A DNA stretch of 64,000 nt from an uncultured Verrucomicrobiae bacterium (GTDB lineage: Bacteria; Verrucomicrobiota; Verrucomicrobiia; Limisphaerales; UBA11358), in NCBI GenBank assembly GCA_963744965.1, contig CAVUVT010000008.1:69767-133766 (forward strand), read 5' to 3'. Shown here in pieces: positions 2,357 to 29,092 of this stretch. Numbering within the stretch: position 1 is the stretch's first letter; each line of letters starts with the position of its first letter. The notes under the pieces are model-generated. The model had not been told where the DNA came from, made no database searches, and saw nothing but the letters and a program-made list of their open reading frames with translations. The position numbers were made by a program, and so were the translations under genes.

Positions 2357-3694
2357 TCAAGTCGCGTCCAATCGTCCGTACTTCCGTATTTCCGGCCAGA
2401 TCCAGGCCACGGCGAGCACGGTCAGAACGGTTCCCACCCCGCCGGACACGGCGGAAATCACCGCGCCGACGACAATCGTGTTCCCGAGAGTCGGCCCGAA
2501 GATTTGCGCGACGGTCCCGGACTCGAACCAGCCCAGTTCGTTGGACGTGCTGATGAAGAGGTTGTTGACGGCGGAGACGCGCCCGCGCTTGTCGTCGGGC
2601 GTGAGCATCTGCACCAGTGTATGCCGCACCACGACGCTGATGTTGTCCACCGCGCCGCAGATGAACAGCATGAGGAACGAAAACCAATACCACTTCGAAA
2701 ATCCGAACGTGATCGTGCCGAGGCCGAAGGCCGCCACGGCCCACAGCATGGAACGCCCGGCTTTCTGCAACGGCGGACGATGGTTCAGGATGAACACGCA
2801 GAGCACGGAGCCCATCGGCATCGCTGCCTGCAGCAGGCCGAGACCGCCCGGCCCGACAAACAAAATGTCCTTCGCATATATCGGCAGCAGCGCCGTCGCG
2901 CCGCCCAACAGCACCGCGAACATGTCGAGCGTGATGGTTCCCAGAATGATTTTGCTCGCGTAAACAAACTTGAACCCCGTCAGCAGCGCCGAAAGCGTCA
3001 TGGGCTCCTTGGCGACGACGGTGTGTTCCCGGCGCACCATGCCGATGAGCAGGCAAAAGACCAGCGATGCCAGCGCATTGAGCACATAAACCAGCGCGGC
3101 GGGCGAGGCCGTGTGCCGGGACATGGCGGCGATGATGGCGCCAGCCGCCGCCGGCCCGACAATACTGGACAGTTGGAACATGGCGGCATTCCAATTCACG
3201 GCCCGCGGGAAATCCTTCCGGTCCACCAGCGCCGGCAAAAAGGCGGCGGTGGCCGCCCACGAAAACGTGCGGGCGGTGCCGCCGATGAACAGGCAGACGT
3301 AAATCCAGTAAACCGGCGCCTGGAGCGCCGATATGACGGCCACCCCAAGGCTCGCCGCCGCCATGACCGCCGTCATCAGCACGATGATTCGTTTGCGGTT
3401 GTAATTGTCCGCGACGTGCCCGGCCGGCAGCGTGAACAAAAACATCGGAACCATCACCGTCAGCCCTATGAGGCCCAGTGCAAAAGCCGAACCGGTGCGC
3501 TCATAAATTTCCCAGCCGATGGCCATGGCGAACATCTGCTGGCCGAGCACAGCCACCAGACGGCCGGCCAGATAAAGTGTGAAATCCCGGTTCCGGAAAA
3601 TGGCATACGGATGCTCGTCACCGGTTTTTACCGGCGGCGGCGGCAGCAGATCTTCTGGCGATTCAGCCTCGTGCATAAGCGCGATGACGGTCAA
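2357..3694 (-). CDS. MFS transporter
   Basis: 445 aa with about 12 hydrophobic helices and an MFS-like loop pattern. Confidence 0.85.
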   Translation of the reverse strand: MTVIALMHEAESPEDLLPPPPVKTGDEHPYAIFRNRDFTLYLAGRLVAVLGQQMFAMAIGWEIYERTGSAFALGLIGLTVMVPMFLFTLPAGHVADNYNRKRIIVLMTAVMAAASLGVAVISALQAPVYWIYVCLFIGGTARTFSWAATAAFLPALVDRKDFPRAVNWNAAMFQLSSIVGPAAAGAIIAAMSRHTASPAALVYVLNALASLVFCLLIGMVRREHTVVAKEPMTLSALLTGFKFVYASKIILGTITLDMFAVLLGGATALLPIYAKDILFVGPGGLGLLQAAMPMGSVLCVFILNHRPPLQKAGRSMLWAVAAFGLGTITFGFSKWYWFSFLMLFICGAVDNISVVVRHTLVQMLTPDDKRGRVSAVNNLFISTSNELGWFESGTVAQIFGPTLGNTIVVGAVISAVSGGVGTVLTVLAVAWIWPEIRKYGRLDAT

Positions 3695-6851: not shown

Positions 6852-7592
6852 ATGACCGGCGCATTTCTCAACGCCTTGGGCATTTTAATCGGCGCGCTGC
6901 TCGGGCTGGCGCTGCCCAAACCGCTGTCCGTCCGAACGCAGGTTTTCTTTCGTTCGGCTCTCGGCACGTTCACCATTTTCTTCGGCCTGCGGCTCGTCTG
7001 GTTGAGTGTCAACGGAACTTTTTTATCCGGATTGAAACAAATGTTCATCGCCGCGCTCGCCATAACCCTGGGTTTTTGGACCGGCAAACTGCTGCGCCTG
7101 CAAAAATTATCGAACCGGCTTGGCCGTTACGCGGGCGGTTTGGTCGCGTCGGCACAAACGGACGCGCCGCGCAAAATCGGCGGCGGCTTCATCGCCTGCA
7201 CCATTTTATTTTGCGCCGCGCCCCTGGGGTTGCTCGGCGCGGTGACGAGTGGTTTGCCAACCCCGGGCGGCCAGTCTGGCGGCCTTTGGCTGCTGGCGAT
7301 CAAAGCCGTGATGGACGGTCTGGCCATGACCGGTTTTGTGAAAATATTCGGCTGGCCGTCCGCAATGTCGGCATTTCCCGTCTATGCCTTTCTCGGCGGC
7401 ATCACGTTGGCCTGCCGGCTTTGGGTGCAACCGTTTCTCGAAATGCGCGGTTTGGTTGACCCGGTCAATGCCGCCGCCGGCCTGATCGCGTGCGCCATTG
7501 CGTTGATGGTTTTTGAGGTCCGCCGGGTGGAACTGGCGAATTTTCTGCCGGCACTCGCCGTCGCGCCGCTGCTCGCATGGTTGCTGAAATAA
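6852..7592 (+). CDS. DUF554-like membrane protein
   Basis: Starts MTGAFLNALGILIGALLG and is a hydrophobic 246 aa. The upstream part of the 474-aa ORF is antisense to the AmpG-like gene. Confidence 0.7.
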   Translation: MTGAFLNALGILIGALLGLALPKPLSVRTQVFFRSALGTFTIFFGLRLVWLSVNGTFLSGLKQMFIAALAITLGFWTGKLLRLQKLSNRLGRYAGGLVASAQTDAPRKIGGGFIACTILFCAAPLGLLGAVTSGLPTPGGQSGGLWLLAIKAVMDGLAMTGFVKIFGWPSAMSAFPVYAFLGGITLACRLWVQPFLEMRGLVDPVNAAAGLIACAIALMVFEVRRVELANFLPALAVAPLLAWLLK

Positions 7593-8429: not shown

Positions 8430-10142
8430 TCACGCCTCGAAATTTTTCAATTGTTGCAACCCGAATCTCAGGGGCAGCCAGCCGATGCAAACGGACAGCA
8501 GCACGAAGCCGATGATGCCTTCCGCCGCCCAGCTTTCGCGCGAGTGCAGGCCGGCCGCGCCAAACACCAGCAACAATACGGAGGCCAGGATGTAAAACGA
8601 ACTCAGCACGAAGCAGAGCGTGCCGCCAAAGCCGCTGACGATTTTGTTCAGGCTGGCCTCCTTCAGGTTGGGATAAAGGACCCCCAGTCCGATGGCGAGA
8701 CCATTGAGGGCAAACGTCATGACGGTGATCACCGCGCCAAAAAACAGCACGCGGTCCCAACTCATCTTGAGCAGATAACAGGACAGCATAATGAGGCCGG
8801 AGGTGACAAACAGCGACGAGATGCTGGCCAGCCAGAACTTGGTTTTGACCACGCGCGCCATGCCCATCGGTGCCATGCCGACGATCCACAACCGCCGGCC
8901 TTCGAGCGAAAATTGCGGGAACACAAACCGCGTCGTCACCGAGGCAAGATTCAGCGAGCAGACGCCGAGATTCAGAAATGCGACCAGGTTGACCCAAAAC
9001 GGGCTGGTCAACTGGTGCGTGAAGTTGCGCAGGTTGATGACATAAACTCCCAGCAGGCCAAACAGCATCACCGACTGGCCCCATTGCGTGGTGTCACGCC
9101 AAAACATCCGCAGGTCCTTGACCGCCAGCGCGCGCATGTCGCGGTCGAGCCAGAACAATTTCGCGGCGATTTTTTCGAGCAGGCCGGCGGCAGGCCGGCG
9201 ATTCCGACCGGAACGAAACCAATTCCACCTGCCACCGGCGCGGCTTTGCACTGCTGATGCCGTGTGGTAAAACACATGGCCAAATTGGGTGAACGCAATG
9301 CCGCCGAAAAACAGCGTGTAGCTCAGCAGCACCAGCGTGAAAAATGCCGCGCCGCGCAGGACGCCTTCGGCCCATTGCAACACAGACGACGACAACCAGT
9401 AGCTCGGCAGAAACGGGAACATGGTGAATCGCGTCTTGGCGAGCAGCAGATCGAGCGCTTCGAGGGTGCGCTTGTCGAGCAACTCGTCGTCAACCGGCTG
9501 GGCCTTCCACCAAAACGCCGCCACCGCCAGCAAAACGATGGCCGTGCCAATCATGGCGATTTGAAAACTGCGCCGGTCCAAAAATCTCCCCACCCAAATG
9601 GCCAGAACCGCGCCCAGCACGCCCGGCAGCACGATAAACAGTGCGATGAGCGCCAACGTCACCAGATAGAAATGCCACGGGACTCCGCGCAACAAGCCAA
9701 ACGCCGCCAGCAACGGCGCAATCAAAAAAACAAACGCCCATGACGCCAGCACCGTGGATTCGATGAATTTCCAGCGGAAAATGGTCCGGGCCGGAACCGG
9801 CAGCGTCAGCAGAAACGCCGTCTCCCGATTGTGGAACAGATTGGTGTAGCCGATGATGAGGTTGCTCAACAGCAGCAACGCGAACAAAAATGCGAACAAC
9901 ACATACATCAGCCGCTCCGTAAGCACCGCACCCAGGCCCGGAAATTTCGCTATGAATCTCAGCCCATGATAGAACAGCTCGAACGACACGACGAGATACC
10001 CGGCCATGAACAACGCGATGATGCCGGTAAGCAACCGCGATTGATCGCGCACGGACAGGAGCCGCCGCCAGCTTTGCAGCGCATTGACGCGCACGAGCAA
10101 CCACAGCGGCGCGGGTTTTGATTGAACGGAATCAGCGGGCAC
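8430..10142 (-). CDS. large polytopic membrane protein (ABC-exporter-permease-like)
   Basis: 570 aa with at least 10 hydrophobic helices. Family assignment uncertain. Confidence 0.65.
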   Translation of the reverse strand: MPADSVQSKPAPLWLLVRVNALQSWRRLLSVRDQSRLLTGIIALFMAGYLVVSFELFYHGLRFIAKFPGLGAVLTERLMYVLFAFLFALLLLSNLIIGYTNLFHNRETAFLLTLPVPARTIFRWKFIESTVLASWAFVFLIAPLLAAFGLLRGVPWHFYLVTLALIALFIVLPGVLGAVLAIWVGRFLDRRSFQIAMIGTAIVLLAVAAFWWKAQPVDDELLDKRTLEALDLLLAKTRFTMFPFLPSYWLSSSVLQWAEGVLRGAAFFTLVLLSYTLFFGGIAFTQFGHVFYHTASAVQSRAGGRWNWFRSGRNRRPAAGLLEKIAAKLFWLDRDMRALAVKDLRMFWRDTTQWGQSVMLFGLLGVYVINLRNFTHQLTSPFWVNLVAFLNLGVCSLNLASVTTRFVFPQFSLEGRRLWIVGMAPMGMARVVKTKFWLASISSLFVTSGLIMLSCYLLKMSWDRVLFFGAVITVMTFALNGLAIGLGVLYPNLKEASLNKIVSGFGGTLCFVLSSFYILASVLLLVFGAAGLHSRESWAAEGIIGFVLLSVCIGWLPLRFGLQQLKNFEA

Positions 10143-10226
10143 GGCATCAAACTAGCGCTGAAGGATGCCGGACGCAATTCTTGCAATACTCGGGACTTCG
10201 GTTTTAGGGTGGTTTTGGAGTTGCCA

Positions 10227-11006
10227 ATGAAATTTAGCAAAGTCAGTCGCCGCCGATTTATTCTCGCCACATTGCTATTAATGCCTTGTGCGGTTGTTGG
10301 CGACGCTGGATGGATCGAGCCGCAGTGGGTCAAAATTCGCCGGCTGCGCCTGACGGACGACAAGCCGACCCATCGCTTCATTCATTTCAGCGATTTGCAT
10401 CACAAAGGCGACCGCGCACATACACAATCCGTCGTGGACCTGATCAATTCGTTGTCGCCGGATTTTGTGTGTTTCACCGGCGACATCATGGAAGAGGGAA
10501 AATACCTGACGGAAGCCCTCGAAATTTTATCCGGCGTCAAATCACCCATGTATGGCGTTCCGGGAAACCACGACTACTGGAGCCGCGTGCCGTTCAACGA
10601 AATCATCCAATGCTTTGCCGCCACCGGCGGCGCCTGGCTCGTGGATGAACAACGTGTGATTGCGGATGGAAAAATCAATCTCGTGGGCATGGCCCGTCTT
10701 GGCCCCGGACATCCATTGCCCTCCGCCGACCCCGGAAGGAAAAACATCCTGCTCATGCACTACCCCGCGTGGGTCAAACGATTGGCGGGTCAAAAATTTG
10801 ATTTGATGCTGGCGGGACATTCCCATGGCGGACAGGTGCGCATCCCTTTTTACGGACCGATAATGGTTCCTTACGCCGTGGACGAATATGATCTGGGATT
10901 GTTCCAAACGGAAGCCGGCCCGTTGTATGTGACCTCCGGCATCGGTTGGTTTCCCGTGCCCATTCGTTTTAATTGCCGGCCGGAAATTGCAGTCATGGAA
11001 ATTTGA
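10227..11006 (+). CDS. metallophosphoesterase (calcineurin-like)
   Basis: Motifs HFSDLHH, GDIMEEG, GNHDYW and GHSHGGQ. RRRF-containing signal-like N-terminus. Confidence 0.85.
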   Translation: MKFSKVSRRRFILATLLLMPCAVVGDAGWIEPQWVKIRRLRLTDDKPTHRFIHFSDLHHKGDRAHTQSVVDLINSLSPDFVCFTGDIMEEGKYLTEALEILSGVKSPMYGVPGNHDYWSRVPFNEIIQCFAATGGAWLVDEQRVIADGKINLVGMARLGPGHPLPSADPGRKNILLMHYPAWVKRLAGQKFDLMLAGHSHGGQVRIPFYGPIMVPYAVDEYDLGLFQTEAGPLYVTSGIGWFPVPIRFNCRPEIAVMEI

Positions 11007-11592: not shown

Positions 11593-11651
11593 GTGGCACA
11601 GGCCTCCGGCCTGTGTGTTTGGTGAATCACAGGCGAGGACGCCTGTGCCAC
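11593..11651. repeat. REPIN, family 1 (GTGGCACAG...CTGTGCCAC)
   Basis: Two inverted GTGG+hairpin units: GTGGCACAGGCCTCCGGCCTGTG ... CACAGGCGAGGACGCCTGTGCCAC. Confidence 0.85.
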
Positions 11652-11656
11652 CTTGA

Positions 11657-12634
11657 TTACCTCGCAAAAATCTGGCGGATGACGTCTTCAATGGGCACTT
11701 CCTGAATGTCAATGTCGCTCACCGCCAAATCATCGAGCAGCGATTTGCAGACGGCGATGACACGGTCGCGTTTGACTTTGAACTGGATCGTGCCGGCGTT
11801 TTTTTCAACGACTTCGCCGTAACGCGCCAGATTTTCCGCCGGATAATCGTTCGCTTTTTCGCATTGAATGGTGACGAGTTTGAAATCAGCGAAGCGATCC
11901 ATGATTTCGGTCAATTTGCCATCGAAGAAGATTTTGCCGCGGTCAATGATGATGACCCGGTCGCAAAGCGCCTGAATGTCGGCCATGTAATGGCTCGTGA
12001 GCAAAATCGTCGTCTTTTGCCCGGTGTTGTGGCGAAGGATGAATTCGCGGACGATTTTTTGCGAAACCACGTCGAGGCCAATGGTCGGTTCGTCGAGGAA
12101 CAACACCTTGGGCTGGTGCAGCAGCGAGGCGATCAGTTCCATCTTCATGCGTTCGCCGAGCGACAGTTCGCGCACGCTGATGTTGAGCTTGTCGCGGACG
12201 TTGAGCATTTCGCTCATTTCGGTGACGGTGCGCTCAAACCGATCGGCGGGGATGCCGTAAATTTTAGCGTTCAGCTCGAGCGATTCACGCGCGGGGAGGT
12301 CCCACCAAAGCTGGTTTTTCTGGCCGAGCACGAGCGCGAACTGGCGGCGGTAGCCGTCGGCGCGTTCCCACGGCACGTAACCGAGCACGCGGGCCGAGCC
12401 GCCGGTGGGATAAAGCAAACCGGCGAGCATCTTGAGCGTGGTGGTCTTGCCCGCGCCATTGGGACCGAGAAAACCGACCAGTTCGCCGGGTTCAATCTTG
12501 AAGCTGACGTCGTTGACGGCGATGGTTTGTTCGTATTGGCGATGGAACAGCCCTTTGATGGCGCCGCCAAATCCCGGCTGCTTTTTGTAAGTGCGAAAGG
12601 CCTTGGTGAGACCGCTGACTTCAATGACGGGCAT
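11657..12634 (-). CDS. ABC transporter ATP-binding protein
   Basis: Walker A GPNGAGKTT, signature LSLGERMK and Walker B LFLDEPT. Confidence 0.9.
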   Translation of the reverse strand: MPVIEVSGLTKAFRTYKKQPGFGGAIKGLFHRQYEQTIAVNDVSFKIEPGELVGFLGPNGAGKTTTLKMLAGLLYPTGGSARVLGYVPWERADGYRRQFALVLGQKNQLWWDLPARESLELNAKIYGIPADRFERTVTEMSEMLNVRDKLNISVRELSLGERMKMELIASLLHQPKVLFLDEPTIGLDVVSQKIVREFILRHNTGQKTTILLTSHYMADIQALCDRVIIIDRGKIFFDGKLTEIMDRFADFKLVTIQCEKANDYPAENLARYGEVVEKNAGTIQFKVKRDRVIAVCKSLLDDLAVSDIDIQEVPIEDVIRQIFAR

Positions 12635-12686: not shown

Positions 12687-14074
12687 TTAGCGCATCAACT
12701 GCTTCTCGAGGTAATGGACAACCTGGCGGACGTTGGCGTCCACCTCCATGCGGTCTTTAACCAGGCGGCAGGCGTGCAGCACCGTGCCGTGATCGCGTCC
12801 GCCGTAGGCCTCGCCGATGGTATTGAGCGAACTTTCCGTCATCTGGCGCGAAAGATACATGGCGATCTGGCGCGGGAAGGCGATGTTTTCCGGGCGGCGC
12901 TTGCTGGTCATGTCGGCCAGGCGAATGTCAAAATGTTCCGCGACTTTCTTCTGAATGACTTCGATATTGATGGAAAAACGGCCCTCCTCGTGAAGGATTT
13001 CACGCAGCAAGCCTTCGACAACTTCGATGGTGAGCTTCTTGCCCGTGAGCGAGGCGTAGGAGGCCACGCGGATGAGCGCGCCTTCCAGCCGGCGGACGTT
13101 GGTGCGGATGCGATTGGCCAGGAAATTCATGATGTCGTCTGACAGGGTCACGCCCATGATCTGCGCCTTCTTCTGGAGAATGGCCAGGCGCATTTCAACA
13201 TCCGGCGGTTGCAGGTCGGTGACCAGGCCCCATTCGAACCGCGAGACGAGGCGGTGTTCAAGCCCCTGAATTTCGCTGGCCGGCCGGTCACACGTGAGCA
13301 CGATTTGCTTGTGGGACTCGTGCAGCGCGTTGAAGGTATGGAAAAATTCCTCCTGGATGCGTTCCTTGCCGGCGAGAAATTGAATGTCGTCAATCAACAG
13401 CACGTCAGTCTGACGATATTTCTTGCGGAATTTGGCGAGCTGGTTGTTTTGGATTCCGTCAATGTATTCGTTCGTGAATTTCTCGGATGAAACGTAGGCG
13501 ACCCGCGCCCCCTTTCTGTTTCCCGAAACGTGCTGGCCAATGGCGTGAAGCAAATGCGTCTTGCCCAGGCCGACGCCGCCATAAAGAAAAAGCGGGTTGT
13601 AGGATTTCCCGGCGCCTGGGCGACGGCGAGCGCGGCGGCATAGGCAAAATTATTATTGTTGCCGACGACGAATGATTCAAAGGTGTTTTTGGGATTGAAA
13701 TGCAGTTCGCTGTTGGCCGGGCGCTCGTGGGCGGATTCGGGAGCTTTGGTTTTGACTGGCGCCGGTGCGGCTGCGGCCGGAACCGGCGCATTTCCCGCGG
13801 CAATTTTGAATTTGACCTGGAACTGGCGGCCGGCAGCAATGGCGAAAGCGTCTTGCAAGAGACTCAGATAATTGTCCTTGAGCCAGACCCCGCTGAATTC
13901 GTTGGCTGCCTCCAGTGTCACGTTGTTGCCGTCAATCGCGCAGGCTCGCAGCGGTGCGAACCACATGTTGTAGGTGTCGTTATTCAGCTTGGAACGAAGA
14001 TGTTCCCGCGCAGAATTCCAAATTTTTTCAGCCGAAAGTTGCATTTGCACTTTATCAAAAAGCCCGTTTTTCAA
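12687..14074 (-). pseudogene. dnaA: chromosomal replication initiator DnaA, split by an apparent 1-nt deletion
   Basis: DnaA domain I and linker are in the frame of 13394..14074. The AAA+ domain and domain IV (SYNPLFLYGGVGLGKTHLLHAIG...) are in the frame open from 13649 to 12687. The frames join at the CCC/TTT run at 13605-13610. Confidence 0.9.
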
Positions 14075-14439
14075 GCGGTTTATTCACCTAGCCCCCCCAT
14101 TCAGGGTTGGCCGCCAGTTTCCGCCGCTGTTCGCCTTGGCAAAGAGCCATGCCCCTGAGAAAGCAGACATACGTTTAACTCTACTGCCAAAAGCTTCATT
14201 TAACAATCGAAACAACCTGCTTATTATCAACACTTTACGAAAAACAAAACCACACCACCGTCAAATGTCTGGTAAAAATGATAAGACGCCCCAAACAACT
14301 TCAATCAACGTGAGCGTTTTATGCAATTGGAACGAAAGTATCTAGGATAACATATTAACTTTTGTTCACGAGTTATTCACAGGCACCTAAATCAAGGGTT
14401 TGCTTGCTTTTCGTTGTCTTCGGACACGCAAGATTTGAC
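14075..14439. promoter_or_regulatory. candidate oriC / dnaA promoter region
   Basis: AT-rich gap upstream of dnaA. DnaA-box-like 9-mers: TTATTCACA (14373-14381), TTATTCACC (14080-14088) and TTATCAACA (14224-14232). Confidence 0.4.
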
Positions 14440-14892
<453 letters not shown>

Positions 14893-15136
14893 TTAATGCC
14901 ATTTACGGTTTGCGTTTGCGCTGGAGCGGCGGTCTGCGACCGTCGCCATTAATTCCGCCGGCGTTCGCCGGGCGCCGCTACAAACCGTATAAAAGTCCTC
15001 CCGGCAAGGGTTGGAGGACTTCCGGTTGGACTAATTCCCCGGTCTCTGGTCATTCTTCGACTGATTAACCAGGTCTTTCTTCCCCAATTTGTCGTGTCTG
15101 GCAAATTTCAAACCCCCGGTAATGTCCTGATTTGCT

Positions 15137-15265: not shown

Positions 15266-18163
15266 ATGGCGACCGATTACAAAAACACGCTCAACCTGCC
15301 GCGCACCGGCTTTCCCATGAAAGCCGACCTCGTTGCGCGGGAGCCGGAACGGCTCAAAAAATGGGAAGCCGCGCGGCTCTACCAAAAAATTCAGGAGCAA
15401 CGCATCGGCGCGGGAAAATTTGTTCTGCACGACGGCCCGCCCTTTGCCAACGGCGATGTCCACATCGGCACCGCGCTGAACAAGATTCTCAAGGACATCA
15501 TCATCAAATACAAAACCCTGCGGAATTTCAGCGCCCCGTATATACCGGGCTGGGATTGCCATGGATTGCCCATCGAATTCAAGGTTTCCCAGGAGATGCG
15601 CAAGGGGAGCGCGAACGTCCCGCCTGCGGATAAATCATTTGACGCCGCCACCATCCGCAAAGCCTGCGAAGCCGACGCCCGCAAATACATTGACATCCAG
15701 CGCACCCAATTCAAACGCCTCGGCGTCCTCGGCGACTGGGATAATCCGTATCTGACGCTGACCAAGGAATACGAAGCCGACGAGCTGCGCCTGTTTGCAG
15801 ACATCGTTGAAAAGGGTTTTGTCTATCGCGGCAAAAAACCGGTCTATTGGAGCATTCCCTGCCGCACCGCGCTCGCCGAAGCCGAGGTCGAATATCAGGA
15901 CCATGTCAGCCAGAGCATTTTTGTGAAGTTTCCCGTCGTCGGCCAGCCCAACACGTTTGTGCTCATCTGGACGACCACGCCTTGGACGCTGCCCGCCAAC
16001 CTCGCCGTTGCTTACAACGACAAATTCCAATATGTCCAGGTCGAGGTCACAGGTGAAAAATACATTTTATTCCGCGGTTTGCTGTCCGCCGTCGCGGAGA
16101 AGTGCGGCTGGAGCAATTACAACGAACAACCGTTCCCAACCGAAAAACTTGCCGCACTGCAGTTTCAGCATCCGTTCTGCAACCGCACTGGCAGATTTTA
16201 CCCCGCTGACTTCGTCACCAGCGACACCGGCACCGGTTTTGTCCACATCGCACCCGGCCACGGTCTCGAAGACTACGGTCTGGGCATGAAAGTCGGACTG
16301 CCGATTTATTCGCCCGTGGACGATGACGGCAAGTTCGCCTACACGAATGATTTGCCGGTCGAACAACAGATGCCGAAAGAAATGGTCGGCAAGTCCATTC
16401 TCGAAAAGCATGGCAAGAGCGATGCGAACGAAGCCGTGCTGCACGAATTGCGCGCGCGTCATGCTTTGTTGCACCAAGAGAATTATCATCACAGTTACCC
16501 GCATTGCTGGCGCAGCAAGACACCCATCATCTTCCGCGCGATGGACCAGTGGTTCATCAAGATTGACCACGTCGTGGCACAGGCCTCCGGCCTGTGTGCC
16601 GATGCCAAAAACACAGACCAGAGGTCTGTGCCACAAACCTTTCGCGCCGCTGCCCTCGCCGAGATTGACCGCGTGAAATGGGTCCCGGACTGGTGCGTCA
16701 ATCGCATCAAAAGCCTGGTGCAAACCCGTCCCGACTGGTGCATCTCGCGCCAGCGCACGTGGGGCGTGCCGATTCCGGCATTTTACGACGCCACGGGTGA
16801 ACCGATGCTCGATGCCCAAATCGTCCGCAACACTGCCGATCTGGTTGAAAAACACGGTTCCAACGTCTGGTTCGAGAAATCCGCCGCTGAACTGTGGTCA
16901 CTCGTAAAACCGAAGAATTGGAAAGGCGCGGAAGCCGTCAACAAGTCCAACGATACGCTCGATGTGTGGATTGATTCCGGCTCGTCCTCGCGCTCCGTTT
17001 TGATGCGACGGGCGGAATTTTCTCATTCCACAATCCACAATCCGCAATCCGCATTGGACTGGCAGGCCGACGTCTATCTCGAAGGCAGTGACCAGCACCG
17101 CGGCTGGTTCCAATCATCGCTGCTGCTGTCACTCGCGGGCAACGGTGCCGCGCCGTTCAAGACCGTGCTCACGCATGGATTCATGGTGGATGCCGACCGC
17201 GAAAAGATTTCCAAGAGCAAACAGGCCCAGGGCGGCTACGAAAAACCGCAGACGGCCGAGGCTTACGTGAAGAAACACGGCGCGGACATCGTCCGCCTGT
17301 GGGTCGCGTCACAAGATTATCGCAACGACATCATCGTGAGCGAGGAACGCATTGCCAAAGTCGGCGAAACCTATCGCGGCATCCGCAACGCCCTGCGCTA
17401 CCAACTCTCGAACCTTTGCGACTTCGATCCGGCCAAGCACACCGTGCGCGAAGACGAACTTACCGGCCTCGACCGCTGGATTCTTGGCGAATTCTCCAAA
17501 CTCGAACAGGAAGTTCTCAAAGCTTACGACGACTACGAATTCCACGTAGTCTATCAAAAAGTCAGCCAGTTCATCGCCGTGGAGCTGTCCTCAATTTACC
17601 ACGACGTCATCAAGGATCGGCTCTACACCGACCCGGCCAATTCGCATCGCCGCCGCTCGACACAGACCACGCTGCACCGGCTGGTGACCGGCCTGTGCCA
17701 GATGCTCGCGCCGATTCTGGCGTTCACGGCGGACGAAGCGTGGGAGTTTGTGCCGAAAGCTGTCGTCTCGGTTCATCAAAGTGAATGGATAGCCAGACCG
17801 TTTATGCTCGATCCTCGTGAGCTCGATATATGGGATTGGCTCAAGCTCTGGCGCGAACAACTTCTTCCCGAACTGGAAAAGGCGCGTCAGGCCAAAGCAA
17901 TTGGCAAAGCATTGGAAGCCAAAGTTGAAATCGTCATACCGCAAGTTCAAAATCAGTATTCCGATCGGGAATTGCTCCGCGAACTCGTCAACGTATCGGC
18001 TTTGAAAATTACTGTTGGCAATCCCGTTTCAATCTCGGTTTCTAAAGCCGACGGCCAGAAATGCGAGCGCTGCTGGCATTGGGAAACGGATGTCGGCCAG
18101 AACGCCGAGCATCCGACCATTTGCGGTCGTTGTATCGAGGCGGTGAAACAATTCAAAATGTGA
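15266..18163 (+). CDS. ileS: isoleucine--tRNA ligase
   Basis: N-terminus MATDYKNTLNLPRTGFPMK, HIGH (GDVHIGT), KMSKS (KISKSK) and a C-terminal zinc finger CERCW...CGRC. Confidence 0.97.
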   Translation: MATDYKNTLNLPRTGFPMKADLVAREPERLKKWEAARLYQKIQEQRIGAGKFVLHDGPPFANGDVHIGTALNKILKDIIIKYKTLRNFSAPYIPGWDCHGLPIEFKVSQEMRKGSANVPPADKSFDAATIRKACEADARKYIDIQRTQFKRLGVLGDWDNPYLTLTKEYEADELRLFADIVEKGFVYRGKKPVYWSIPCRTALAEAEVEYQDHVSQSIFVKFPVVGQPNTFVLIWTTTPWTLPANLAVAYNDKFQYVQVEVTGEKYILFRGLLSAVAEKCGWSNYNEQPFPTEKLAALQFQHPFCNRTGRFYPADFVTSDTGTGFVHIAPGHGLEDYGLGMKVGLPIYSPVDDDGKFAYTNDLPVEQQMPKEMVGKSILEKHGKSDANEAVLHELRARHALLHQENYHHSYPHCWRSKTPIIFRAMDQWFIKIDHVVAQASGLCADAKNTDQRSVPQTFRAAALAEIDRVKWVPDWCVNRIKSLVQTRPDWCISRQRTWGVPIPAFYDATGEPMLDAQIVRNTADLVEKHGSNVWFEKSAAELWSLVKPKNWKGAEAVNKSNDTLDVWIDSGSSSRSVLMRRAEFSHSTIHNPQSALDWQADVYLEGSDQHRGWFQSSLLLSLAGNGAAPFKTVLTHGFMVDADREKISKSKQAQGGYEKPQTAEAYVKKHGADIVRLWVASQDYRNDIIVSEERIAKVGETYRGIRNALRYQLSNLCDFDPAKHTVREDELTGLDRWILGEFSKLEQEVLKAYDDYEFHVVYQKVSQFIAVELSSIYHDVIKDRLYTDPANSHRRRSTQTTLHRLVTGLCQMLAPILAFTADEAWEFVPKAVVSVHQSEWIARPFMLDPRELDIWDWLKLWREQLLPELEKARQAKAIGKALEAKVEIVIPQVQNQYSDRELLRELVNVSALKITVGNPVSISVSKADGQKCERCWHWETDVGQNAEHPTICGRCIEAVKQFKM
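16574..16634. repeat. family 1 REPIN inside the ileS coding sequence
   Basis: GTGGCACAGGCCTCCGGCCTGTG...CACAGACCAGAGGTCTGTGCCAC, translated in frame as VAQASGLCADAKNTDQRSVPQ. Confidence 0.85.
17024..17058 (+). repeat. heptamer array (CAATCCR x5) inside ileS
   Basis: CATTCCA CAATCCA CAATCCG CAATCCG CATTGGA, encoding HSTIHNPQSAL. Confidence 0.8.
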
Positions 18164-18188
18164 TGCCGCGCAAATGACCAATGCCCAT

Positions 18189-19040
18189 TTATGCTTTCAA
18201 GAAACCAGCCATGTCCTCCTGAATTTGCTTTTCGGATTTCAATTCGGAAACCGGTTTGTCACCTGCTCCACTTTCCAGCAAATTGATTACAGCTTGTGAA
18301 AGCCCAACAAATCCTACCTCTTCTTGTTTTAAGATACCCTGACAAACAATCTCCACGCTTAAACTGTGCTTTTCGGCAGACATGGTTTTTCCTATTAACA
18401 CGCGGTCAATGATTCTTTGGGCCATAATTAAAATGCAAAGGCAAACCGAACCAAGGTTTTTGATAGCATCTATGCTTCCATGAATTTTAGCGTAATACTC
18501 TATTTCTTCTGAAGTTATTCCAAATTCAGCCAGATTCCCTTCAAAATAATTTAGCACATTAGTAAAATGTAAATCACGTTGCTCCCAATTTGACAGAACG
18601 GCGGCAACAAAACCAATTAGCCAGCCATCTTGGTCGTATAGAGGGTGAGTGGCCGCAACTTCGCCGACAGCGCTATTCAGTTCCTTGTATATTTGAGCAA
18701 AATTATGCCGTCCCACAACCCGCTGCTTTTCCATTATTAGTCGAATGATGTTTGAGGAGTGAAATGACGCAATTTCGGTGCAAAGAGCATTCAAAAACTT
18801 ATCTTCTAATTCTTCCTTTGGAGCAATTTTTTGTTGAACCAAAAGCTCACAAATAGCAAGACCTGCCATTGCACTAGACCCTACCAGCCAGCTTGCAATT
18901 CTTGTGTAAGGGATGTCGTTATTATTTAATATTATGCGTTGCTCCACTTTGAGGCTTTTGGCGTTGATGCTTGGATTGAGTTCCGCCTGTTTCGTGAGCA
19001 TAACCGCACAGCAATTCGGCTTCAATCTTTGGTCTGACAA
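18189..19040 (-). CDS. hypothetical protein (up to 283 aa), AT-rich cassette ORF-c
   Basis: Long ORF in low-GC DNA, helical with several hydrophobic stretches. The 5' end overlaps ORF-b by 119 nt, so the start is uncertain. Confidence 0.6.
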   Translation of the reverse strand: MSDQRLKPNCCAVMLTKQAELNPSINAKSLKVEQRIILNNNDIPYTRIASWLVGSSAMAGLAICELLVQQKIAPKEELEDKFLNALCTEIASFHSSNIIRLIMEKQRVVGRHNFAQIYKELNSAVGEVAATHPLYDQDGWLIGFVAAVLSNWEQRDLHFTNVLNYFEGNLAEFGITSEEIEYYAKIHGSIDAIKNLGSVCLCILIMAQRIIDRVLIGKTMSAEKHSLSVEIVCQGILKQEEVGFVGLSQAVINLLESGAGDKPVSELKSEKQIQEDMAGFLKA

Positions 19041-19188
19041 CGTTGGCGTCTCTCAAAAAAATCTCTGTCAAATCATCTTGGGTTTTGGCAGCACGGATTC
19101 GGTCTATTTGAAGTTGCAACGCTGCATTGGGCTTGCCAGCGCGGGCGACTATCTCATCAACATAGGCTTGCTGGGCTTTAGTTAGCAT
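18922..19188 (-). CDS. hypothetical protein (88 aa), AT-rich cassette ORF-b
   Basis: Start overlaps the ORF-a stop (ATGCTAA). The C-terminal third is low-complexity and overlaps ORF-c. Confidence 0.5.
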   Translation of the reverse strand: MLTKAQQAYVDEIVARAGKPNAALQLQIDRIRAAKTQDDLTEIFLRDANVVRPKIEAELLCGYAHETGGTQSKHQRQKPQSGATHNIK

Positions 19189-19442
19189 GATGACGGTGCT
19201 GACAGTGGCTTAATTTGTTTTTTACTTTCAACTGTTTTCCAGAGGGAAAGCATTTCCGCACCAGTAATATGGTCAGTGCCATGTGGCTGGCCTACATTGT
19301 GAAATCGGATATTTTTAGCTATCCCGATGCCATTTTTAGCAATGACTTCAACTAAATCATCCCAGCTTATTCCGGTCACTTTTTCTATAGGAAGCGGGAT
19401 GTTTTTGATCACTTCTATTTTGTATAGTTTTATGTTTGGCAT
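19182..19442 (-). CDS. hypothetical protein (86 aa), AT-rich cassette ORF-a
   Basis: First ORF of a compact minus-strand operon. No family recognised. Confidence 0.55.
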   Translation of the reverse strand: MPNIKLYKIEVIKNIPLPIEKVTGISWDDLVEVIAKNGIGIAKNIRFHNVGQPHGTDHITGAEMLSLWKTVESKKQIKPLSAPSSC

Positions 19443-19511
19443 ATTCCATTTATTTATTTTGACTTTGCGCCCGGCAAAAATTTTGTCCAGAAAAAATCAC
19501 ACCGGCGGCGG

Positions 19512-19593
19512 CGTGAAGCCGTTCAAGGTATAATTGTGGCACAGACCTCCGGTCTGTGTTCCCAACCCCTCACAGGTCGGAGACCTGTGCCAC
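19512..19593 (+). repeat. direct repeat unit 1: ileS-tail-like 21 nt (VKPFKV*) plus family 1 REPIN
   Basis: GTGAAGCCGTTCAAGGTATAA + REPIN 19536-19593. Near-identical to 19806-19887. Confidence 0.8.
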
Positions 19594-19773
19594 ACTTTGC
19601 GCTGGCCGTTGCTGCGTCAGAAATCCGGCTCAGGACATTTCCAAGCTCCGTCCCGCCTTCGTTCAACTTCGGCGCGGTAAACAGGAGCGGCATATTCCGT
19701 CCGTTCACCAGAGGATGTCGCTCCTGACGGAGCTTGGGAATTCTACAAAACGAAAAGCTACAAATATGCCGCG

Positions 19774-19827
19774 CCTACGGCGCTTTGCGGACGTTGCATC
19801 GAGGCTGTGAAACCGTTCAAGGCATAA
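19774..19827 (+). pseudogene. relic of the ileS 3' end (PTALCGRCIEAVKPFKA*)
   Basis: About 80% nucleotide identity by eye to 18112-18163 (PTICGRCIEAVKQFKM*). No upstream ileS body. Confidence 0.75.
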
Positions 19828-19829
19828 AC

Positions 19830-19887
19830 GTGGCACAGACCTCTGGTCTGCGTTTCCAATCCCTCACAGGCCGGAGGCCTGTGCCAC
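19830..19887. repeat. REPIN, family 1
   Basis: GTGGCACAGACCTCTGGTCTGCG...CACAGGCCGGAGGCCTGTGCCAC. Ends 1 nt before the GH28 stop codon. Confidence 0.9.
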
Positions 19888-19888
19888 A

Positions 19889-21271
19889 TTAAAACCCGCC
19901 GCCCTTGTTGTTGATGAAGCTGATGCGGTTGGTGTAGCTGAACGAGTTGGCAGTGGAAGTGTTCAGGAACCGGCAATTGGAGACGGTCACGTCCGTAATC
20001 TGGTTCGCGGAACTCAATCCTAGCATATAAATCGCTTGGGCCACATTGGCAAAGGCGCAATCACGGACGTCAATGTTGCGGACAATTGGTGTGTTGGTGC
20101 CGGTGTTGGCCGGGGAAGAGGAAGTGTACTGCATCGTCATGTAAACCCCGGTGTCGGTGGCGATCTTGGTCATGCAGTTGCGAAAGTAAATATTTTCCAT
20201 GTAACCGCCCCGGGCGGTGTTGGTCTTCAAACGCAAAACCGTTTGCAGGATGGTGCTGTTGAAATCGCAATTTTCCGCGAAAACATTGGTGACGCCGCCG
20301 GATTCCTCGCTGCCGACGGTGACGCCGCCGTGGCCGTCGGCAAACGTGCAGTTCTGAATCACGATGTTCCGGCTGGGTATGTTGACGCGCAGACCGTCCT
20401 GATCGCGCCCGGATTTGATGGCGATGCAATCGTCGCCGTCGCTGAAGGAACAGTTTTTGATGAGCACATCGGTGCAGGAGTCTGGGTCGCAGGAGTCCGT
20501 GTTCGGGCTGGAGCTGCTGTTGTTGACCGTCACGCCGTGAATGGTGACGTTGGTGCAATACAGCGGAGTGACCGTCCACATCGGCGAGTTGAGAAAGGTG
20601 ACGCCGTCAATCAGGACATTCTGGCAATGAACGGGCTGGACGAAAGTTGGCCGCAGATAATGTCCCGGCCCAAAAATGCGCTGCGCCACGGGCATGTTGG
20701 TGCTGGCCATGTTCCACAACAATTGCTCGTCGGCGGTGAGCAAATTTTTCCAATTGTACCAGACCGAGTTCTCCGCCTGTCCGTCAATCGTTCCCGGCCC
20801 CGTGATGGCGATGTTCGTCTGGCCGTAAGCGTAGATGAATGGCGAATAATTCATCAACTCGATGCCCTGATAGCGGGTGAAAACCACCGGCAGAAACGAA
20901 TTCGTGTTGGTGCTGAACAGAATTGTTCCACTCTGGGCGACATACAAATTGATGTTGTTGAGCAGATGAATCGCGCCGGTCAGGAATGTCCCCGCCGGCA
21001 CGACCACGCGCCCGCCACCGGCTGCATTGCAGGCCACAATCGCGCTGGAAAAGGCCGCCGTGCAGTCGGTTGTGCCATTGCCCACCGCGCCGTAGTTCGT
21101 GATGACAAAATCCTGCGCCGGAAAGGTTGGCGGAATGATGCGCGCGAGAATGTTGGTCACCCGCGCCCAATCGCTGGGACTGGTCTGCGCGGCCAGCCGC
21201 GCCGGCAGCAGCAAACCGAAACCGATGGCCAGGGCGGTGATAACTTTGTTTGAGTGTCGGCGTAAAAACAT
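19889..21271 (-). CDS. glycoside hydrolase family 28 (polygalacturonase-like)
   Basis: Signal peptide. Motifs NTDSCD, GDDCIAIKSG and GHGGVTVGSE in parallel beta-helix repeats. Confidence 0.85.
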   Translation of the reverse strand: MFLRRHSNKVITALAIGFGLLLPARLAAQTSPSDWARVTNILARIIPPTFPAQDFVITNYGAVGNGTTDCTAAFSSAIVACNAAGGGRVVVPAGTFLTGAIHLLNNINLYVAQSGTILFSTNTNSFLPVVFTRYQGIELMNYSPFIYAYGQTNIAITGPGTIDGQAENSVWYNWKNLLTADEQLLWNMASTNMPVAQRIFGPGHYLRPTFVQPVHCQNVLIDGVTFLNSPMWTVTPLYCTNVTIHGVTVNNSSSSPNTDSCDPDSCTDVLIKNCSFSDGDDCIAIKSGRDQDGLRVNIPSRNIVIQNCTFADGHGGVTVGSEESGGVTNVFAENCDFNSTILQTVLRLKTNTARGGYMENIYFRNCMTKIATDTGVYMTMQYTSSSPANTGTNTPIVRNIDVRDCAFANVAQAIYMLGLSSANQITDVTVSNCRFLNTSTANSFSYTNRISFINNKGGGF

Positions 21272-22608: not shown

Positions 22609-22665
22609 GTGGCACAGACCTCTGGTCTGTGTTTCAAACCCACACAGGCCGGAGGCCTGTGCCAC
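22609..22665. repeat. REPIN, family 1
   Basis: GTGGCACAGACCTCTGGTCTGTG...CACAGGCCGGAGGCCTGTGCCAC, between convergent genes. Confidence 0.9.
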
Positions 22666-28938: not shown

Positions 28939-29092
28939 GTAGCACCCGCGTCTCGCGGGTTGAATTCGGCGTCCCGCCGAATTCTGTTGTGTGACATAGG
29001 TTGCAGGCAATCGGGCAAGTGTGAAACGTTCGTTCGTCCCGCAACAGTTTCGGGCGGGACGCCCGAAACAACAGGCCGGAGGCCTGTGCTAC
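28939..29092. repeat. REP cluster: family 2 REP plus second hairpin, an inverted second-hairpin module, and a family 1 half-REP
   Basis: GTAGCACCCGCGTCTCGCGGGT + GAATTCGGCGTCCCGCCGAATTC (28939-28985); GTTTCGGGCGGGACGCCCGAAAC (29047-29069); ACAGGCCGGAGGCCTGTGCTAC (29071-29092). Confidence 0.8.

Follow-up and report, generated by a model that had tools for sequence, protein, structure and literature searches.

We analyzed a 64-kb stretch of DNA (the window) from a metagenome-assembled genome (MAG) of the Limisphaerales (Verrucomicrobiota), and in particular the AT-rich region at 18164-19535 that directly follows ileS, the gene for isoleucyl-tRNA synthetase (IleRS). The DNA at 18164-19535 is foreign and was horizontally acquired. 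It is probably an integrase-less cassette of two genes that occupies a capture slot at the 3' end of ileS, and this slot would be shared across the clade. The evidence comes from the composition of the region, from displaced copies of the end of ileS beyond it, and from a conserved non-coding core of about 60 nucleotides (nt) that bounds the cargo in about 100 contigs and that a preliminary description of this region overlooked.

The region was first described as an AT-rich insert after the ileS stop codon, and the numbers bear this out. Its G+C content is 0.421 versus a mean of 0.579 for the window (standard deviation 0.033 among equal-sized segments), which is the minimum of all equal-sized segments across the 64 kb. 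At third codon positions, G+C is 0.36-0.40 in the region's three open reading frames (ORF-a, ORF-b, and ORF-c), versus 0.69-0.76 in ileS, in a GH28 glycoside hydrolase gene (19889-21271, minus strand), in a gene with RCC1 repeats, and in PAD, the agmatine deiminase gene. The cassette is 99.9-100% identical across 13 aligned contigs from the population (13 samples or assemblies).

Displaced ends of ileS beyond the cassette

The insertion target is the 3' end of ileS (15266-18163, plus strand, 965 amino acids [aa]); an identical ileS in contig L004 matches the Pfam families tRNA-synt_1, Anticodon_1, and zf-FPG_IleRS. The present end of the gene and the 7 nt past its stop codon (18104-18170, plus strand) form the left junction, and relatives L025, L151, and L028 are similar only up to about 18157-18170. 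Beyond the cassette lie two relics of the ileS C-terminus, as had been proposed. Relic 2 (19768-19827, plus strand) is the displaced original end of ileS. Most of it (19768-19820) is 79% identical to the present end (18104-18156), so a direct repeat of the target end flanks the insert. Relic 2 and GH28 are also collinear with the junction of ileS and GH28 in relative L063, which is an empty site: there, ileS ends 26 nt from GH28 with no insert, and the GH28-RCC1-PAD neighbors are 77-84% identical to those in the window. In another relative (L029), PAD directly follows ileS. Comparing the interval between ileS and GH28 in relatives thus upheld the original suggestion that foreign DNA was inserted at the 3' end of ileS and that the old end was displaced.

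Relic 1 (19513-19533, plus strand) reads GTGAAGCCGTTCAAGGTATAA, which corresponds to 'VKPFKV*', and it is joined to an ileS-like sequence that follows the core elsewhere. The segment 19513-19594 is an 88% copy of 19807-19888, and this copy consists of the last 21 nt of ileS and a hairpin that resembles a repetitive extragenic palindromic (REP) element. REP-like elements follow both relic 1 (19536-19596) and relic 2 (19830-19890, overlapping the stop codon of GH28). We considered relic 1 as a piece of the REP element and dropped this idea, as the flanks of other REP copies are unrelated. Because the hairpin is dispersed elsewhere with unrelated flanks, the 21 nt are a genuine duplicate of ileS and no part of the repeat. 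Between the first REP-like element and relic 2, there is a spacer with inverted repeats (19597-19767) that resembles a miniature inverted-repeat transposable element (MITE), and parts of it recur in L039, L119, L128, and L002. Searching 17900-20100 against Rfam gave just chance matches of the microRNA type on the REP hairpins.

The cassette encodes ORF-a and a split gene, ORF-bc

The preliminary description had listed a minus-strand operon of three ORFs. ORFs of the reported sizes do exist (86, 88, and 283 or 270 aa), but the second and third are parts of a single gene that is split by a 2-nt deletion. ORF-a (19442-19182, 86 aa) ends in a stop codon that overlaps the start of ORF-b (19188-18922, 88 aa). 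This 7-nt overlap (ATGCTAA), which was noticed at the outset, is real, and a start/stop overlap of the same type is found in L015 and L128 (two contigs from the same organism, of which L128 is longer) and in L099. ORF-c (19001-18189) would encode 270 aa from the ATG at 19001 or 283 aa if translation began with the TTG at 19040, as the frame is open. All three ORFs are on the minus strand.

The only relative of ORF-a that we found, P0007, is 70% identical and is encoded on L015 and L128, where it overlaps a gene of 302 aa by 7 nt in the same manner as ORF-a overlaps ORF-b. The first 61 residues of the 302-aa protein are 87% identical to ORF-b. The protein then runs on in frame as ELLVAIMLTKQAEFNPS, and the window encodes the matching CCAVMLTKQAELNPS in the frame of ORF-c; the 302-aa protein ends with Sel1 repeats and a hydrophobic tail. 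Similarly, P0018 (303 aa, from L099) aligns to residues 1-61 of ORF-b (69% identity to its N-terminus) and then, unbroken, to residues 11-211 of ORF-c. At the site of the deletion (19004-19011, minus strand), the window has GAATTGCTGTGCGGTTATG, L015 has GAATTGCTTGTTGCGATTATG, and L099 has GAATTGCTTTGTGTGGTGATG. The deletion is fixed: all 13 population contigs with this cassette have it. Together, the deletion and the in-frame fusions in L015 and L099 imply that ORF-b and ORF-c are one split gene, which we call ORF-bc. ORF-b consists of a helical module of 61 aa, which is the N-terminus of ORF-bc, and of a 27-aa tail that is out of frame; ORF-c is the distal part of ORF-bc. Judging from these alignments, the cassette is a two-gene operon of ORF-a and the modular ORF-bc.

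Both halves of ORF-bc may still be made. The ATG at 19001 lies directly past the frameshift and is conserved in L015 and L099, and the ORF-c domain occurs as a stand-alone protein in P0003, P0005, P0009, and P0010, so the 88-aa and 270-aa products may both be expressed. Compared with its homologs, ORF-c has a ratio of nonsynonymous to synonymous divergence (dN/dS) of 0.20-0.32; the ratio is 0.41 for ORF-a and 0.20 for the module in ORF-b. Such values, along with the confident structural model of the ORF-c domain (see below), speak for real genes. On the long contigs, gene callers replace ORF-a and ORF-b with a 72-aa antisense ORF at 19225-19443 (5685-5903 in L004) and start ORF-c at an internal methionine (226 aa), so public annotations of the cassette are inconsistent.

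The family of ORF-c is tiny, with five clusters among 5.8 billion clustered sequences, and a profile search gave 13 matches (P0018 is one of them) among 1.84 billion cluster representatives. AlphaFold2 models the body of ORF-c as an all-alpha domain of about 245 aa with 12 helices (predicted local distance difference test [pLDDT] 88.8, predicted template modeling score [pTM] 0.89). We searched this model against PDB and BFVD with Foldseek and found no fold match (template modeling score under 0.25). The model of ORF-a is weak (pLDDT 69.5, beta-beta-alpha-beta-alpha), and it had no fold match in PDB either; the best E value across these Foldseek searches was 0.1-0.6. The statement that the three ORFs belong to no known family thus survived searches of Pfam, PADLOC, PHROGs, and NCBIfam, which gave sub-threshold noise only, as well as the fold searches.

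The N-terminus that precedes the ORF-c domain varies. It is the MLTKAQ module in the window and in P0018, a short MSFLKNLFG leader in L002, L013, and L014, and a module with two transmembrane segments in P0013. Conversely, what follows the MLTKAQ module is the ORF-c domain in some proteins and Sel1 repeats in others, and these fusions show the two to be interchangeable C-terminal modules. A similar interchange after the two-transmembrane module is only suggestive: the N-terminus of P0013 resembles that of the Sel1 protein L176_356 when the sequences are compared by eye (no formal alignment). In four lineages (the window, L002, L013, and L014), a homolog of ORF-c is the neighbor of ileS; in L001 and L099, homologs are found away from ileS.

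A conserved core bounds the cargo on the side away from ileS

The core in the window (19446-19513, minus strand) is non-coding and lies just upstream of ORF-a, where the 93 nt between ORF-a and relic 1 hold a conserved block of about 58 nt. On the cargo strand, it has a GC hairpin and a T-run and then TCTGGACAAAATTTTTGCCGGGCGCAAAGTCAAAAT; its consensus is the GC hairpin, the T-run, and TCT(G/T)GA(C/T)AAAATTTTTG(C/G)CGGGCGCAAAGTCAAAATTGTGAAAC. The core is 88-97% identical in eight loci with different cargo (L013, L014, L015, L025, L028, L035, L039, and L045). Scanning metagenome contigs for an exact degenerate pattern identified the core in 87 stretches, and the same pattern had no matches in viral contigs. 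A profile of the core (nhmmer) found 139 copies in 98 sources, which are 97 loci and the window; the window has a single copy (19446-19511 according to nhmmer).

About 35 of the 98 sources have two to four cores in the same orientation, spaced by 330-1300 nt. Cores within a locus are no more alike (0.81) than cores from different loci (0.79), which implies that these arrays are not recent local duplications. The distal copies are followed by remnants, by MITEs, or by a ParE-type pair.

On the PAD side of many cores, we found sequence that resembles the 3' end of ileS. This similarity is significant for 29 of 95 distinct copies (p <= 0.01 versus shuffled sequences, with z up to 10); for example, one core is adjacent to GCGGCTGCGT-GAGGCCGTGCAGCAGTTCA, versus GCCGCTGCGTCGAGGCGGTGAAGCAATTCA in the ileS consensus. 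In the window, the ileS-like segment meets relic 1 at GTGA(A/G)GCCGT, and the genuine ileS end and the REP-like element come next. Better-kept relics are located 300-450 nt past the core in L119, L146, L162/L177, and the window and about 800 nt past it in L139. The relic in L119 is 90.6% identical to the present ileS end of L151, versus only 74% for L119's own present end. This layout is what would be expected if a unit of ileS-like end, cargo, and core recombined into the 3' end of ileS.

The core may also be a weak promoter, with T(T/G)GA(C/T)A and CAAAGT separated by 16 nt and a palindrome between the hexamers. The palindrome, GGACAAAATTTTTGCC, is where an operator would lie, and a simple scan called a terminator-like site at 19516-19497. 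We considered a sigma-54 promoter (TGGAC..TTGC) as well, and rejected it by eye because its elements are wrongly spaced by one position and the TTGATA variant does not keep the GG.

The slot holds unrelated cargo in other genomes

To see what other genomes have at this position, we scanned 80 relatives with the ileS C-terminus and analyzed 80 core-bearing metagenome contigs (of the 87 pattern matches). Different low-GC genes follow ileS in other genomes. Among the core-bearing contigs, 48 of 80 also hold ileS, and it ends to the left of the core in all 48; PAD is to the right of the core in 35 of 80. Both ends of the slot are present in 52 loci (47 contigs, four genome loci, and the window), and in these, ileS ends 248-2433 nt left of the core. 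The interval contains one to four ORFs, most of which (72 of 84) read away from the core and finish 15-40 nt from the ileS stop codon. The G+C content of the interval is 0.38-0.54 versus 0.43-0.56 for ileS, and 48 of the 52 loci have a lower value in the interval than in ileS.

The cargo ORFs form 57 unrelated clusters. According to Pfam and PADLOC, cargo elsewhere includes PDDEXK_4 (which is the PADLOC candidate PDC-S26, E = 9e-32), HNH, HEPN_AbiU2, SLFN_AlbA_2 (Schlafen), a HEPN protein of the DRT type (PADLOC RTasHEPN, E = 1e-5), DUF6998, a ParE toxin, Sel1, and DUF4234. We rejected these proteins as kin of the window's cassette, as they are unrelated to it by sequence. The cargo differs even where the 3' parts of ileS are 91-92% identical: L126 and L137 share no cargo, nor do L137 and L176, and L126 and L176 have just a 394-nt stretch in common (at 74%). 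The ORF-c family is absent from L063, from L029, and from most of the 80 relatives.

Relics of ileS accompany other cargo as well (in L073, L070, L119, L139, L145, L146, L162/L177, and L179). For example, L073 has a 36-codon in-frame relic 1.26 kb downstream, and its present ileS end is AT-rich and divergent; in L070, the relic is 2.3 kb downstream. L073 also has two overlapping minus-strand ORFs (1123-2087; 114 and 225 aa with a 58-nt overlap) that match no family and may be one frameshifted gene. PemK/MazF-like toxin genes with an upstream partner are found beside the slot in L028 (9930-10672) and directly after the ileS relic in L070 (11366-12017), and a 75-nt fragment of the 3' end of such a gene precedes the relic in L119 (2660-2740). 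These pieces are the record of an earlier arrangement, into which a later insertion cut. In L024, which lacks the core, a 238-aa ORF on the same strand directly follows ileS (6872-7588) and by eye includes a segment like a GIY-YIG nuclease.

Upstream of ileS are the N-terminus of dnaA (13394-14074, minus strand) and a PII/glnB gene (14440-14889, minus strand), within a region at about 12700-14900. As these genes are immediately upstream of ileS, the variable slot lies about 4 kb from dnaA. The interval at 14050-14500 is AT-rich (G+C of 0.42), and a strict DnaA box is absent from it.

How the cassette may have arrived

No integrase had been seen in the cassette, and we likewise found no integrase ORF at 18164-19827. 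A scan of about 180 related loci for tyrosine recombinase motifs found no recombinase-motif ORF beside the slot, although divergent or serine enzymes could be missed because the scan used regular expressions only. The sole true match was a XerC/D-like ORF in L034, at 6.5 kb from ileS. Just beyond the core of L035, there is a 186-aa ORF (9901-10461) that by eye is IS200/RAYT-like. It is possibly a mobilizer of REP-like elements or, less likely, of cassettes.

We propose that 18171-19455 is acquired cargo in a variable slot that a sub-clade of the Limisphaerales keeps between the 3' end of ileS and the core, with ORF-a translationally coupled to ORF-bc (the 61-aa N-terminal module plus the all-alpha domain of about 245 aa). 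A unit would enter by recombination inside or just after the last ileS codons. The incoming unit would bring or keep an intact ileS end, so that the former end is pushed rightwards (as relics 1 and 2), and later arrivals would enter next to ileS. Beyond this, we tentatively suggest that the core and its attached ileS-like sequence could be the recombination end of the cassette as well as the terminator and promoter of the cargo, with the recombinase encoded elsewhere.

Several points weigh against capture at a dedicated slot. Nearly all of the comparison DNA is from metagenome contigs or from MAGs with uncertain binning, and some of the MAG labels are plainly mis-binned. No recombinase was found, which leaves a dedicated mechanism of capture unproven. 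The position of the left junction is not constant, ranging from within the final ileS codons to about 25 nt past the stop, and the ileS tails differ among loci (KQFKA*, RIVV*, TSTT*, VK*, and MELQT*), a pattern more in line with imprecise or homologous exchange than with one crossover point. In L073, cargo and a relic are present without a core, and L151 is equivalent to L119 plus one extra ileS-proximal gene that has no core of its own. When the core was scanned for a consensus promoter, none was called. Shuffled sequence is as stable as the hairpin that precedes the T-run (median z of -0.1), and we dropped the idea that this hairpin is a selected terminator, as this was unsupported beyond GC content. 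ORF-bc is frameshifted and so may be decaying. The synonymous divergence (dS) from L128, in contrast, speaks for a foreign origin: in the window, it is 0.56 for ORF-a and 0.39 for the module in ORF-b, versus 1.02 for ileS and 1.01 for PAD. The cassette would thus have been shared later than the backbone, but this is suggestive only, as the comparison covers just 61-86 codons of AT-biased genes.

The alternative that best survives is that the slot is an ordinary hypervariable island that is refreshed by homologous recombination among related strains, with ileS and the core/PAD side as the arms. The relics would be by-products of occasional illegitimate or single-crossover events, and the core would owe its conservation solely to a role as terminator, promoter, or operator. 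This would account for the variable left junction and the differing ileS tails, the lack of a recombinase beside the slot, the palindrome (GGACAAAATTTTTGCC) at an operator-like position, a cargo orientation that is consistent with a fixed promoter, and the extra gene without its own core in L151. However, a double crossover makes no duplicated ileS ends, yet relics are present in at least ten loci. Also, the cores of an array differ from one another as much as unrelated copies do, a sign of additive capture; many cores have ileS-like sequence directly joined to them; and 60 nt is short for a homology arm. Given these observations, we consider homologous exchange to be unlikely as the full explanation.

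Another possibility, which is compatible both with homologous exchange and with a remnant of an integrase-bearing element, is that the cassette is decaying or non-functional passenger DNA and that the frameshift makes ORF-bc a pseudogene. The fixed 2-nt deletion, the lack of known domains, and the disagreement of gene callers about the ORFs are all in line with decay. It is harder to reconcile with dN/dS of 0.2-0.4 on all three pieces, with the stand-alone ORF-c domain in four proteins, with the conserved ATG directly after the frameshift, or with the near-identity of the cassette in 13 population contigs. Overall, decay seems quite unlikely.

The preliminary description had suggested that the cassette may be stranded cargo. 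On this reading, a larger element with an integrase targeted the 3' end of ileS, and a deletion later removed the integrase. We now regard this as very improbable. Direct repeats of the target end do flank the insert, its composition is foreign, and tandem islands at the 3' ends of genes are a known pattern (for example, at ssrA in Dehalococcoides). But no recombinase-motif ORF adjoins the slot in about 180 loci, and short integrase-less cargo is the rule: all inserts are short (0.25-2.4 kb), and cargo fills them from the core up to the ileS stop. The same deletion would have been needed independently in every lineage. Lastly, that these are ordinary core genes, inherited vertically at this locus, would fit the ORF-c homologs beside ileS in four lineages and is refuted by the empty sites and the sparse distribution (a tiny family that is absent from L063, L029, and most of the 80 relatives), as well as by the extreme composition and the homologs away from ileS in L001 and L099.

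Possible role of the cargo

Returning to the capture slot, its cargo in the window could be a conflict-type module, akin to toxin-antitoxin (TA), abortive infection (Abi), or other defense systems. We put this forward with some hesitation, as it is plausible only because of the other occupants of the slot and the neighbors of the ORF-c homolog in L001. This homolog is flanked by a HEPN_AbiU2 gene and by a weakly HEPN-like gene, which has an RNQIAH motif and matches HEPN_RiboL-PSP with E = 0.0036 (below the Pfam cut-off). Like type II TA and Abi modules, the cassette has a small first gene that is coupled to a larger second gene, its context is mobile and AT-rich, and ParE and HEPN/AbiU2 proteins are found in the same slot elsewhere. 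In contrast to those modules, it has no homology to their families, and its second gene is about 300 aa, modular, and frameshifted. In such a module, ORF-a would bind the N-terminal module of ORF-bc, with the C-terminal domain serving as a sensor or effector that can be exchanged.

The lack of family matches counts against a role in defense or as a TA module. PADLOC, which had been recommended for the three proteins, matched none of its models: PADLOC-DB v2 gave zero families at E <= 1 for ORF-a, ORF-b, and ORF-c, and likewise none for P0018 or the L015 fusion. Neither the family searches nor the PDB fold searches showed homology of the cassette proteins to a toxin or antitoxin family.

Comparison with known systems

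Genomic islands of the ssrA type are generally known to insert in the 3' end of a housekeeping gene, to regenerate that end, to leave the displaced ends as direct repeats, and to pile up in tandem, much as we see at ileS. They differ in being kilobases to tens of kilobases long and in carrying their own site-specific integrase, whereas the units in the ileS slot are 0.25-2.4 kb, lack an integrase, and have a 60-nt core as their right border.

Cis-mobilizable elements (CIMEs) are commonly understood as integrase-less cargo within att-like repeats, with a recombinase presumed to act in trans and with tandem accretion. The window's cassette likewise lies within att-like repeats and carries no genes for recombination or transfer, and we identified no helper element. 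CIMEs are usually seen as decayed integrative and conjugative or integrative and mobilizable elements beside an intact partner. In contrast, we saw no partner element at the ileS slot, and the lack of an integrase is the norm in about 100 contigs.

Integron cassette arrays and clusters of attC sites lacking integrases (CALINs) are, as a matter of general knowledge, made of small units in the same orientation, mostly with a single gene of diverse unknown function, with a short conserved repeat between them and no internal recombinase. Relatives with two to four cores in the same orientation resemble such arrays, although the window has only one core. In the ileS slot, however, the core is 5' of the ORFs and looks like a terminator or promoter, and the last ORF by ileS has no core after it. 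By eye, the cores have no GTTRRRY/RYYYAAC ends (no attC model was run), and a motif scan and the gene tables showed no adjacent intI or attI. Also unlike in an integron, the capture point is the 3' end of ileS, and relics of ileS are left behind.

Each of these comparisons has a published counterpart: tandem genomic islands at a conserved gene's 3' end at ssrA in Dehalococcoides (PMC3146451), CIMEs and accretion at att sites in a review (PMC5704250), and integron cassette arrays and CALINs in the IntegronFinder paper (PMC4889954). The hotspots of P2 and P4 are places for variable and defense genes between conserved flanks (PMC9122126). They resemble the ileS slot in their fixed position between conserved flanks and their fast-exchanged, low-GC cargo, which includes nuclease, Abi, and TA-type genes; they differ in being in phages and satellites and are not known to show target-end duplication or repeat arrays, whereas the ileS slot is chromosomal and about 4 kb from dnaA. 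Overall, the arrangement at ileS works like 3'-end island accretion, CIMEs, integrons and CALINs, and defense hotspots, yet it fails one defining feature of each.

We found no description in the literature of ileS as an integration target, of this core, or of cassette systems in Verrucomicrobia. If the slot is an active capture site, then a little-studied phylum of soil and peat would have a gene-cassette system that falls outside the integron paradigm. It is doubtful, on present evidence, that this sub-clade of the Limisphaerales has a full cassette-capture platform, with promoter-bearing cassettes, a core and ileS-like segment, an unlinked recombinase, and serial insertion at the 3' end of ileS; if it does, the platform would be an integron-like, origin-proximal array that stores and expresses a fast-turnover pool of defense genes, toxin genes, and genes of unknown function, including ORF-a and ORF-bc. 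An active capture site would also provide a 60-nt marker that pulls new cargo straight from metagenomes (a single scan led to 57 unrelated ORF clusters), a testable target in the 3' end of ileS, and a route to the functions of orphan proteins, such as the all-alpha domain of ORF-c, which has no fold relative in PDB or BFVD. Even a conservative reading leaves an essential gene that hosts a hotspot of recombination, only some 4 kb from dnaA.

Other variation within ileS

The ileS gene itself also varies. Because identity to L025 drops from 0.97 to 0.65, we considered whether the last 450 nt of ileS might be foreign. We dropped this idea: all comparisons showed the segment at 17756-18046 to be hypervariable, and identity to L025 and L151 is back at 90% over the last 120 nt of the gene. 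Within this segment, which spans about 290 nt of the C-terminal domain, the length varies and no nucleotide similarity to any relative is detectable. The flanks of this segment within ileS are 87-91% identical, so it is a hypervariable segment within an essential gene.

L128 has a premature TAG in ileS (at about 3660-3684), four codons ahead of the usual stop (..CGRCVEAVL*FKA*). This stop and the numerous changed tails elsewhere show that the IleRS residues after CGRC(V/I)EAV, which are the last few of the protein, are dispensable.

The REP-like palindrome of 57-61 nt (GTGGCACAGRCCTCYGGYCTGTG ... CACAGGCCGGAGGCCTGTGCCAC) is dispersed in the window, with copies at 11593-11660, 16574-16634, 19536-19596, 19830-19890, and 22609-22665 and a half copy at 29070-29092. 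The copy at 16574-16634 lies in frame inside the coding sequence of ileS, where it encodes 'VVAQASGLCADAKNTDQRSVPQT'. At this site, there is no insert in L024, L029, L063, L035, or L045. Nine of the ten other ileS genes that we compared have inserts of 19-25 aa, and L021 has one of 33 aa; the sequences of these inserts differ, and the window's insert is similar to those in L046 and L028. It looks as if palindromic repeats had been inserted here in frame more than once, in a way that recalls the Rickettsia palindromic elements.

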